DNA from: a virus
Lineage: Duplodnaviria; Heunggongvirae; Uroviricota; Caudoviricetes
Virus record (IMG/VR): IMGVR_UViG_2531839234_000021
Reading direction: 5' to 3' (one strand)
DNA length: 4,566 nt
Shown here: positions 1 through 1,930 of the stretch, piece by piece
Layout of the letters: every line of letters begins with the position of its first letter
Numbering within the stretch: position 1 is the first letter of the stretch
Program-made: the position numbers and the translations under genes
Notes under the pieces: generated by a model
The model's input: the letters and a program-made list of their open reading frames with translations, nothing else
Told to the model about the DNA's origin: nothing
The model's database searches: none

Positions 1-23
1 ATACCGCCAAACGTCACCAGAAA
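1..23 (-). ncRNA. dicF: DicF small RNA, 5' portion only; the rest lies beyond the left edge of the window
   Basis: The reverse complement of 1-23 reads TTTCTGGTGACGTTTGGCGGTAT, which matches my recollection of the 5' end of the 53-nt E. coli DicF sRNA. It is on the same strand as, and downstream of, the repressor-side operon, as in the Qin dicA-ydfABC-dicF-dicB arrangement. Recalled from memory, not searched. Confidence 0.5.
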
Positions 24-363
24 ATTGATAACAGAGGGCGTTGCAGCGGGGTTGTCACTTAAGCGTATGGTCAACCTGACAACCCGGTGTCCTCAACGGG
101 GAAGGAATAACCCCGCCATACTTACCGCCGCGCCATTTCGCGGATTGCCACAACCGGAAGCGCACGGTCGACGAAAATTTAACGACAGGCTATCTATGAA
201 CCAGCTACCTCGCCGTGCGCTTTCGCGTTATGGTCTGACTTTTCAGGGAAATATCCTTTCAGTAAACTGTCAGTGCCGGATGCTCACCCGTGTCCGGCGC
301 ACGCACTCCACCTCACCCGTGGAGAACTACTTAATTACCAACCTTAGCTTCGTTGGTTAGCTA
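24..363 (-). other. Structured untranslated region between the 72-aa gene and dicF; probable processing substrate
   Basis: No minus-strand ORF with a ribosome-binding site. GC-rich with several inverted repeats: GTTGTCA 51-57 / TGACAAC 77-83, GCCGGA / TCCGGC near 274-300, ACCAAC 337-342 / GTTGGT 352-357. Confidence 0.35.
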
Positions 364-582
364 TTAACGCGGGTATGTAATCATTCTGGCAATGCTTAAT
401 GCCGCTGCTTTTTCCAGATTGGTGATATCCTGCTCCAGAGCGGACAGATTTTCAGCCTGCTTAGCCCTGGCTTCATTGGCCCATTTCAGGTCCTGCACCG
501 CCTTAATTTTCTGGTGCATCCACTCATAAAGTTCATCATCGGTATAGTCTGGCGCGATGATGACGGGGTCTCGTTTCTGCAT
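364..582 (-). CDS. Small hypothetical protein, 72 aa, in the ydfC position of a DicA-type early-left operon
   Basis: Complete ORF with ATG at 582-580 preceded by a strong Shine-Dalgarno AAGGAG (complement of 588-593) at 5-nt spacing. Same strand as the repressor and dicF. Length equals that recalled for K-12 YdfC, but the sequence itself is not recognised. Confidence 0.65.
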   Translation of the reverse strand: MQKRDPVIIAPDYTDDELYEWMHQKIKAVQDLKWANEARAKQAENLSALEQDITNLEKAAALSIARMITYPR

Positions 583-654: not shown

Positions 655-954
655 TTACTCGAGAGGAAATTGGTTATGAATACAATCAAGTTTTCTTGCC
701 CAGAATGTGGTGGCTAAGTCTTTGACACATCCTTTAAGCCGCAGGGCTCTGACAGTTTCGCGGGAGCCATCTGCAAAAATTGTGGTCACCTTGTAACTGA
801 AGATGAGTCCTCGCAGTTCGATGACGAAATCGTTGACAATATCTTCGGTGCACTCACCAGAGACTTTCTGAAGTAAAGGCGCATACCGCTTAGTTACCGC
901 TCTGATAACTCTTACCTGTCCGGCAATGGCGCTGATATCAATATAAAGCGCCAT
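655..954 (-). CDS. Hypothetical 99-aa ORF; alternative interpretation of the same DNA as the plus-strand zinc-ribbon ORF, possibly a shadow ORF
   Basis: Open frame with ATG at 954-952 but no convincing Shine-Dalgarno. The start codon sits inside the 926-954 hairpin stem. It uses several rare Arg and Gly codons (CGA, AGA, CGG, GGA). It is in exact codon register with the opposite-strand zinc-ribbon frame. No recognisable motif. Confidence 0.25.
   Translation of the reverse strand: MALYIDISAIAGQVRVIRAVTKRYAPLLQKVSGECTEDIVNDFVIELRGLIFSYKVTTIFADGSRETVRALRLKGCVKDLATTFWARKLDCIHNQFPLE
676..876 (+). pseudogene. Small zinc-ribbon protein ORF (two CxxC knuckles) interrupted by an in-frame TAA at 715-717
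   Basis: Strong RBS GAGAGGAAA (661-669) 6 nt before ATG 676. The frame reads MNTIKFSCPECGG-stop-VFDTSFKPQGSDSFAGAICKNCGHLVTEDESSQFDDEIVDNIFGALTRDFLK-stop. CPECGG and CKNCGH form a classic zinc-ribbon pair. A hairpin plus T-rich tract follows at 926-963. Codon usage looks more E. coli-like than the antisense ORF. Confidence 0.4.
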
Positions 955-1218: not shown

Positions 1219-1626
1219 TTATTTATTTGCGCTTCTTTTGCGAGCTTTGAGTAGTTCTTCAAAAAGTTTGTTGAAATTCTCAACTCGAGCACGCATCTCT
1301 GACAACAGAGCCTTTTGCTCTGACTCAGGCAGTGCGTCGAACAGTTGAAGCAACTCTTTTTGATCTTCTGTCAGATTGACTGGCTGATTATCTGGGATCG
1401 GTTCGCCTGGTTGCTTATCTTCATCTCCAAAAAGAAGCCAAGTCGGCGAGCACTGAAGCGCCTGGCTCAGTGCGAATAATCTCTTCCCCGCTGGCTGTGT
1501 TTCATCTCTTTCCCATTGAGAAATTGTTACGTGAGCCACTTTGACCAGCTTACCTAATGCGGCCTGAGACAGTTTTAATTTTTTTCGCCTGTATAAGAGG
1601 CGAGCACCGAAGGTTTCGTTTTTCAT
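1219..1626 (-). CDS. dicA: Prophage repressor, XRE-family HTH with a C-terminal helical domain and no S24 peptidase domain (DicA-like, 135 aa)
   Basis: Complete ORF. N-terminal HTH signature (LSQAALGKLVKVAHVTISQWERDETQP). Divergent from a Cro-like gene across an operator-rich intergenic region. Length and architecture match E. coli DicA as I recall it. On the same strand as dicF. Confidence 0.85.
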   Translation of the reverse strand: MKNETFGARLLYRRKKLKLSQAALGKLVKVAHVTISQWERDETQPAGKRLFALSQALQCSPTWLLFGDEDKQPGEPIPDNQPVNLTEDQKELLQLFDALPESEQKALLSEMRARVENFNKLFEELLKARKRSANK

Positions 1627-1702: not shown

Positions 1703-1930
1703 ATGTTGAAAATTGATGCTATAGCGTTTTTTGGCAGCAAAACAAAGCTTGCCAATGTCGCAGGAGTTAGGCTGGCAAGCGTTGCTGCATGGGGGGAACT
1801 GGTTCCTGAAGGTCGCGCGATGCGCCTGCAAGAGGCATCCGGCGGGGAACTTCAGTACGACCCCAAAGTTTATGACGAATATCGTAAGGCAAAGCGGGCG
1901 GGGCGGTTGAACAATGAAAATCACCACTGA
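1703..1930 (+). CDS. cro: Cro-like repressor of the P22 Cro family (DicC-like), 75 aa
   Basis: Complete ORF with RBS AAGGG 7 nt upstream. Sequence (FFGSKTKLANVAGVRLASVAAWGELVPEGRAMRLQEASGGELQYD) resembles P22 Cro as recalled (HFGTQRAVAKALGISDAAVSQWKEVIPEKDAYRLEIVTAGALKYQ). Divergent from the repressor gene. Confidence 0.85.
   Translation: MLKIDAIAFFGSKTKLANVAGVRLASVAAWGELVPEGRAMRLQEASGGELQYDPKVYDEYRKAKRAGRLNNENHH

Follow-up and report, generated by a model that had tools for sequence, protein, structure and literature searches.

RESULTS

The locus and its relatives

The sequence analysed here, called the window throughout, is a stretch of 4,566 nt from a Caudoviricetes virus (IMG/VR record IMGVR_UViG_2531839234_000021). 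Its left part carries a leftward operon (Table 1). A candidate promoter lies just downstream of the gene for a DicA-like repressor, the placement that dicBp has in the Qin prophage. It is followed by an open reading frame (ORF) of 99 aa, a homologue of ydfC, a leader and, at the left edge, the first nucleotides of the small RNA DicF. The 99-aa ORF has no Pfam match and is annotated as a hypothetical protein in strain 350. The window also holds genes for YdaT-family, DnaT-domain O-like, lambda-P-like and DUF1627 proteins. We considered and rejected an internal promoter for dicF: a consensus scan of the minus strand from 24 to 1089 found no promoter-like site, and published work on the locus also gives no evidence for one (PMC10448788). 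Half-sites of the CCTAAG/CTTAGG type are repeated at 1085-1200 and at 1627-1700, flanking the DicA-like repressor gene; these clusters are probably the operators OL and OR.

Table 1. Features in the window, in window coordinates; the two arms of a helix are separated by a slash
Feature	Position	Strand	Basis
First 23 nt of the DicF sRNA, seed region included; terminator hairpin beyond the window edge	1..23	-	K-12 identity; RF00039
Unpaired AU-rich linker GCCCUCUGUUAUCAAU, ending at the RNase E site AAU↓UUU (between 24 and 23)	24..39	-	folds; published RNase E dependence
Conserved four-helix pseudoknotted RNA domain, ~115 nt, inside the 190-nt DicF precursor	40..154	-	covariance model; covariation
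Domain closing helix P0	154-147/47-40	-	
Domain helix H1	143-139/132-128	-	
Domain helix P2	127-124/88-85	-	
Domain helix P2b, set off from P2 by an internal loop	115-111/101-97	-	
Domain helix H3 (the 51-83 stem noted earlier)	83-77/57-51	-	
Domain pseudoknot, P2/P2b internal loop (GUAUGG) with H3 loop (CCAUAC)	121-116/70-65	-	
Long interrupted hairpin, probable RNase III substrate	148..233	-	MFE; z; pair table
Proximal leader after the ydfC stop codon, several small hairpins	234..363	-	fold
ydfC homologue, last protein-coding gene before the leader	364..582	-	ORF; ydfC annotation in relatives; phrog_1744
99-aa ORF of the leftward operon, in the place of ydfA and ydfB of Qin	655..954	-	phrog_21318
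Candidate PL/dicBp-type promoter, TTGACC-18-TAAATT	1119-1090	-	consensus scan only
DicA-like (CI-type) repressor	1219..1626	-	63% identity to K-12 DicA over 131 aa; Pfam HTH_3
DicC-like Cro	1703..1930	+	83% identity to K-12 DicC; Pfam P22_Cro

The first 1200 nt of the window have matches in 4347 of 5426 complete Escherichia coli genomes and in 45 phage records. Phage Tritos has, in this order, integrase, excisionase, exonuclease VIII, ydfD, dicB, DicF (annotated), spacer and ydfC. A prophage of strain 350 (PPompW type, adjoining ompW) has the same gene order. A first-pass annotation of the window had proposed that the left operon runs on into a cell-division-inhibition module with dicF and probably dicB. 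dicB is seen in the context of DicF in relatives only, and dicF-dicB-ydfD stands at that place in all close relatives, as proposed. The same annotation took the element for a more complete relative of Qin, and the gene content agrees: the DicA-like (63%) and DicC-like (83%) regulators are there, together with the YdaT, O-like, P-like and DUF1627 genes. The same module is found in phage records deposited as complete genomes, for example Tritos and PPompW, and a functional temperate phage with dicB, dicF and dicAC, mEp460_ev081, appears in a 2023 paper (PMC10448788).

In prophages of the O157-type PPompW group, 634 bp that the window lacks are inserted between ydfC and the leader, at about 337/338 (5340-5975 in locus L003). 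Two ORFs lie in this insertion, one of 135 aa in the direction of the operon and one of 77 aa in the opposite direction.

The 5' end of DicF and the ydfC-dicF spacer

Read from 23 to 1, the minus strand of the window is TTTCTGGTGACGTTTGGCGGTAT. The sequence agrees with K-12 dicF (NC_000913.3, from 1649382) at each of the first 23 nt. An Rfam scan of the whole window at E ≤ 10 matched the DicF family, RF00039, at 22..1 on the same strand; the match is truncated at its 3' end and scores 25 bits (E-value 0.026) over the first 22 of the 52 model positions. The 22 model positions that fall within the window align without gaps, 21 of them identical to the consensus, and include the 5' single-stranded region UUUCUGGUGACGUUUGG and the start of the terminator stem. 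The score lies below the gathering score of 48 bits, presumably only because the window edge cuts off the 3' end. Full dicF copies collinear with the window score 76.7 bits (K-12) and 72.5 bits (phage Tritos). The first-pass annotation had assigned these 23 nt to the 5' end of DicF, to be checked against Rfam and K-12; both bear out the sequence and its coordinates.

The DicF copy of O157 PPompW falls under the RF00039 threshold, and its 3' half is divergent. Where PPompW differs, the last DicF bases in the window have the K-12 base (GGCGGTAT versus GGCGGCAT). The 3' half of DicF, the terminator and dicB of the element studied here lie outside the window, and its DicF variant is seen only through the first 23 nt.

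The position of the ydfC homologue makes the spacer exactly 24-363, or 340 nt. In K-12 MG1655, ydfC ends at 1649041 and dicF occupies 1649382-1649434, so that the spacer is likewise 340 nt. Through the spacer and the start of DicF the window aligns without gaps, at ~98% identity, with K-12, phage Tritos and an O157-like strain. Judged by sequence comparison, the agreement with K-12 cannot be put down to chance.

The minus strand of 1-363 folds with -136.1 kcal/mol (z = -3.0 against shuffled sequences), in keeping with the earlier description of a leader rich in stem-loops. Its proximal part, 234..363, is ~81-83% conserved in phages phiSTEC1589 and PhiR5_2. A 9-nt sequence, CTCACCCGT on the plus strand, occurs there twice, at 283-291 and 312-320 (29 nt apart), in neighbouring small hairpins. 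Its transcribed-strand copy ACGGGUGAG forms the loop and part of one arm in each of two adjacent hairpins, and both copies are retained in phiSTEC1589 and PhiR5_2. A hairpin at 238-276 on the minus strand was dropped as unsupported, since substitutions in phiSTEC1589 break one pair without compensation. The other Rfam matches (rli48, rydB, snoRNA and astro_FSE) have E > 1, lie within coding sequence and were likewise set aside.

Processing of the DicF precursor

dicF lies in a long untranslated region 3' of ydfC. The 5' end of DicF is made by RNase E, whereas its 3' end arises either from intrinsic termination, which gives 53 nt, or from RNase III cleavage, which gives 72 nt (PMC5069750; PMC9438474). 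Ragunathan et al. (2023, PMC10448788) showed that in K-12 a 190-nt and a 53-nt DicF species both exist. The longer species depends on RNase III and accumulates on RNase E inactivation and in stationary phase; the 53-nt species depends on RNase E. Primer extension in that study put the RNase III cut between nucleotides 813 and 814, with no internal promoter found. Read-through transcripts into dicB exist, and much K-12 transcription ends at the DicF terminator (PMC10448788).

Where do these cuts fall in the window? The two species differ by 137 nt (190 - 53), which places the RNase III cut 137 nt upstream of DicF +1, between K-12 positions 1649244 and 1649245. This junction corresponds to 813/814 if the transcript starts at 1648432, 76 nt before ydfA, a start site that we infer. 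Taken together, the fragment size and this numbering origin would put the cut at about window 161/160 by gap-free homology.

The minus strand of 145-237, folded alone, forms a long interrupted hairpin with an MFE of -37.4 kcal/mol (z = -3.7), in which 233-210 pairs with 171-148 through ~23 pairs. The putative cut at 161/160 falls in the 3' arm, inside a 10-bp perfect duplex (222-213 with 158-167). The cut that yields the 190-nt species would thus be surrounded by a double-stranded helix of about two turns, as is expected of an RNase III substrate, and the hairpin is the probable substrate of this enzyme. The RNase E site, AUCAAU↓UUUCUGG (between 24 and 23), lies within the sole extended unpaired stretch (24-39) between the domain described below and the DicF hairpin. 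RNase E prefers to cleave at RN↓WUU, a preference that AAU↓UUU at 24/23 presumably satisfies. Both nuclease steps were mapped in K-12 and would carry over to the element in the window through the ~98% identity.

The first-pass annotation had proposed a 7-bp stem at 51-83 as a determinant of RNase III or RNase E processing, to be compared with published cleavage maps. These maps, transferred to the window, place the cuts at about 161/160 (RNase III) and at 24/23 (RNase E) and speak against both parts of the proposal. A stem of 7 bp is too short for RNase III, and the mapped cut is ~100 nt upstream of this one; RNase E cleaves within the AU-rich linker, which is unpaired. The stem itself is real: 83-77 pairs with 57-51, and 5 of the 7 pairs are compensatory in relatives. 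The ydfC-dicF arrangement and its processing are already known, having been described in 1990 and re-examined and confirmed in 2023.

A conserved pseudoknotted RNA domain

In a sensitive search of phage genomes, window positions 32-154 were found to be conserved alone in phages otherwise unlike the leader. They contain a four-helix RNA domain with a pseudoknot (Table 1), the existence of which is well supported. A covariance model of the domain matches the window at 157..37 with 148.6 bits and finds exactly one copy per phage, on the transcribed strand only. Because the structure includes G-U pairs, it is specific to the sense strand.

In the model-based alignment of 47 distinct sequences, the structure comprises 35 pairs in six helices, and 95.8% of the cells are paired. 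Both partners have changed in 15 of the 35 pairs, against a mean of 5.0 in shuffles and with none of 500 shuffles reaching 15, a count made on an alignment fitted to the model, among related sequences, with most pseudoknot bases fixed by the search patterns. When the partners are slid by 1-3 columns, pairing drops to 30-57% and at most five pairs show two-sided changes. Compensation is plain in two cases: in H3, Izhakiella has GUAACCA/UGGUUAC in place of GUUGUCA/UGACAAC, and in the pseudoknot P1 has GCAUGG/CCAUGC. An independent run of RNAalifold also yields H1, P2, P2b, H3 and part of P0. Folded alone, the domain has an MFE that does not stand out against shuffled sequence (z = -1.36); what supports the domain is covariation.

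At E ≤ 10, window 24-363 has no match to any Rfam family. Neither Rfam nor the accessible literature, a coverage that stops short of the older dicF and P1 papers, holds a description of the domain, or of dicF in connection with a pseudoknot, antitermination or putL. The cloverleaf-like shape of the domain also suggested a tRNA- or tmRNA-like RNA, a reading we rejected when ARAGORN returned 0 genes in the window. By eye, the motif GGCGGUA is found both in the domain and in the 5' arm of the terminator in the Qin and cdtI types, and not in P1/P7; it suggested that the two might compete in the manner of a riboswitch, a reading that was set aside.

Distribution and genomic context

Identity of the domain to the window copy is 88-90% in cdtI, Ayreon, 2H10 and Stx2c phages, 85% in pPE4, 83% in Salmonella phage F1055, 82% in P7 and 78% in P1. 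Pattern scans found it in at least 120 viral contigs. When one genome per species was scanned, 18 of 23 pattern matches proved genuine, two of them from a single species. The genuine copies come from Escherichia species, Shigella, Citrobacter, Trabulsiella, Erwinia tracheiphila, Izhakiella and Serratia symbiotica.

What accompanies the domain in these genomes? An intrinsic terminator, a stable hairpin followed by a T-run, lies 3' of it in all 70 distinct downstream sequences, 60-107 nt past the end of the search pattern. This is the DicF terminator in the Qin types, and different terminators occupy the place in the cdtI types and in P1/P7. The stretch between domain and terminator is variable, and the DicF seed is missing in cdtI, 2H10 and P1/P7. 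The conserved unit is therefore the domain with a terminator, not DicF. The domain is always found in repressor-controlled early operons, ~290 nt from the annotated PL in Ayreon and ~45 nt from the C1-controlled promoter Pban in P1 and P7, where it precedes tRNA genes, tciABC and ban.

Three further observations concern individual records. The annotated 'dicF-like region' of P1 (2442-2609 in locus L004; 1491-1612 in the P7 locus, L009) consists of the 3' half of the domain and a different terminator, and in both phages the domain sits between Pban and the genes for tRNA-Asn and tRNA-Thr. Pattern matches also turned up in contigs of Gram-positive gut metagenome-assembled genomes (MAGs), L185, L190 and L192 (Veillonella, Clostridia and Collinsella). 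The covariance model finds near-identical enterobacterial copies in L184, L185 and L192, with L190 unconfirmed, and the Gram-positive contigs with the domain are most likely mis-binned Escherichia prophage DNA. Finally, phage vB_Apl-pPE4 (L005), whose recorded host is Actinobacillus pleuropneumoniae, has a copy of the domain with 85% identity and, in addition, genes for DicA, YdaT, Kil and exonuclease VIII. These genes are typical of enterobacterial lambdoid phages, and the host assignment may be doubtful.

The N gene and a variant lacking the domain

phiSTEC1589 and PhiR5_2, two phages that encode N, share the leader and have a terminator like that of DicF, but in place of the domain they carry a short loop, GUUGUG-AAUA-ACAAC. 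In this variant the ~90-nt core of the domain gives way to a 4-nt loop between the P0 arms, upstream of the DicF-like terminator and kil. It was seen in phiSTEC1589-Stx1c and PhiR5_2 (L132 2265-2900, L133 2250-2900) and in 38 viral contigs (L136-L173).

Three N proteins served as tblastn queries against the 3.5 kb upstream of each locus. N homologues turned up at none of 109 loci with the domain, as against 29 of 35 loci of the domain-less variant, which had several N types; the comparison is to be read with the variant having been collected by one exact 26-nt pattern, the N queries having come partly from the same loci, and N being hard to detect. The proteins encoded between repressor and domain gave no N-like PHROG match, in a comparison where a control N protein matches phrog_271, and the window ORFs 364-582 and 655-954 have no N-like PHROG or Pfam match. 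The link between the domain and the absence of N is correlative, and is confounded by linkage of modules and by the difficulty of detecting N.

DISCUSSION

We read the minus strand of window 1-363 as the distal untranslated part of a DicA-repressed, dicBF-type early-left operon of a Qin-like lambdoid prophage, in which the spacer is the precursor of DicF. We give this reading a probability of about 0.9. An untranslated DicF region that follows ydfC, in an operon with a DicA-like repressor, is found within the window itself.

Expression would proceed as follows. A polycistronic transcript would start at the PL-type promoter near window 1100. RNase III would cut the long helix 148-233 at about 161/160 and leave a 190-nt intermediate ending at the intrinsic terminator of DicF, outside the window. 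This intermediate would consist almost wholly of the four-helix pseudoknotted domain (154-40), followed by DicF. RNase E would then cut the single-stranded AAU↓UUU at 24/23 and release the 53-nt, Hfq-binding DicF, while polymerases that pass the DicF terminator would express dicB and ydfD. Since the 5' arm of P0 and the base of the RNase III helix share positions 154-148, only one of the two pairings can form at a time, and cleavage by RNase III should leave the domain free to fold.

Much of this scheme follows from the known biology of Qin. The conserved, covarying pseudoknotted domain, with its association with a terminator and with the absence of N, is the sole point that goes beyond the accessible literature. 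What does the domain do?

One proposal, which we take seriously while giving it somewhat less than even odds, is that the domain is a maturation and stability module of an sRNA precursor. It would be a folded RNA shielded from Rho and from nucleases, open at the RNase E site alone, and would control how fast DicF is set free; the 190-nt RNA might in addition act in trans by itself. Cleavage by RNase III produces a 5' monophosphate, which stimulates RNase E and would favour its entry here. From the domain to the terminator hairpin, the RNase E site is indeed the one long stretch without pairing, and the base of the RNase III helix competes with P0 for 154-148, so that the cut would free the domain. 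The 190-nt species also accumulates in stationary phase and on RNase E inactivation (PMC10448788). However, cdtI, 2H10, Ayreon and P1/P7 keep the domain although they lack the RNase III helix and have either no DicF seed or a different one. The conserved role of the domain therefore cannot be specific to DicF maturation. Phages with N, moreover, make a DicF-like RNA without the domain.

A second proposal makes the domain a cis-acting processive antiterminator RNA, put-like yet unrelated to put, that would let polymerase read through DicF-type and later terminators in phages that lack N. We consider this rather unlikely, and a role in maturation or stability is at least as likely as one in antitermination; the two could coexist. 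The constant presence of a terminator 3' of the domain (70 of 70 distinct downstream sequences) is what such a function would predict, as is the position of the domain early in repressor-controlled operons, close to PL in Ayreon (~290 nt) and to Pban in P1/P7 (~45 nt). The distribution of N (0 of 109 loci with the domain, 29 of 35 of the domain-less variant) and the want of an N-like PHROG match among the proteins from repressor to domain point the same way, and read-through transcripts into dicB are known (PMC10448788). Yet the association with N may simply be linkage of mosaic modules, and much K-12 transcription does end at the DicF terminator (PMC10448788). There is one copy per phage, in the leftward operon only, whereas HK022 has put in both early operons, and the domain has neither sequence nor model similarity to HK022 putL or putR. 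Homology to put was discarded on these grounds: BLAST gave no similarity, and the covariance model had no match in HK022 24000-32500 at E < 7.

A broader form of this second proposal is that the domain represents an uncatalogued class of phage cis-regulatory RNA, a protein-independent antiterminator or terminator-control element that would replace N in many lambdoid phages and in the ban operon of P1/P7, with DicF as one of several passengers lying between the domain and its terminator. We consider this form, too, rather unlikely.

The last alternative, that the leader encodes a small protein, can be dismissed as highly improbable. Two ORFs exist mechanically, one of 111 aa at 25-360 on the plus strand and one of 36 aa at 55-165 on the minus strand, and hypothetical proteins are annotated on the opposite strand over the same spot in cdtI, Ayreon, 2H10 and pPE4. 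However, both ORFs are interrupted by indels of 1, 4 and 5 nt among close homologues, which means that neither strand codes for protein in the leader; the substitutions obey the rules of base pairing rather than those of codons; nothing is annotated at the spot in K-12 RefSeq; and the region has been described as untranslated (PMC5069750). The first-pass annotation, which saw no convincing ORF in 24-363, was right on this point. The opposite-strand hypothetical proteins over the RNA domain (L006 2124-2579, L135 2885-3079, L011 2385-2579 and L005 2401-2607, all on the plus strand) are, given the frame-breaking indels among homologues, probably mis-annotations.

The question of function matters because the domain is more widespread than DicF itself, is always followed by a terminator and never occurred with N in our sample. 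If it controls read-through, it would be the second RNA-only antitermination system after put, and would account for the expression of dicB, kil-type and recombination genes in lambdoid phages without N. If it only shapes sRNA maturation, it would still be a candidate for a new Rfam family, and several 'hypothetical protein' annotations would be corrected.

Comparison with known systems

The closest known system is the dicBF operon of Qin in K-12. The two share the ydfC gene, the gap-free 340-nt spacer at ~98% identity, an identical nt 1-23 of DicF, DicA-like and DicC-like regulators and leftward transcription. They differ in that an unrelated 99-aa ORF replaces ydfA and ydfB in the window, the repressor is just 63% identical to DicA, and the O/P-type replication genes present in the window have been lost from Qin.

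Over its full length the window is best matched by the PPompW/Sp10-type prophage of O157:H7 and by Tritos and vB_EcoS-813R8 (96-97% over 4.5 kb, with the same gene order), all of which have int-xis-exo-ydfD-dicB-dicF on the left. In contrast to O157 PPompW, with its 634-bp insertion and divergent 3' half of DicF, the window lacks the insertion and is K-12-like at its last DicF bases.

The 'dicF-like region' in the ban leader of P1 has the same arrangement of domain and terminator (91.6 bits with the covariance model), directly downstream of a repressor-controlled promoter. The similarity lies in the domain, however, and does not extend to DicF proper: P1 has no DicF seed, uses another terminator and carries tRNA genes, tciABC and ban downstream in the place of dicB.

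HK022 putL and putR are alike in kind, being structured RNAs in the early operons of N-less lambdoid phages, upstream of terminators that must be read through. They differ in build and in number: put is ~70 nt long with two stem-loops and lies downstream of both PL and PR, whereas the domain is ~115 nt long, with a four-way junction and a pseudoknot, and occurs singly, in the leftward or the ban operon only.
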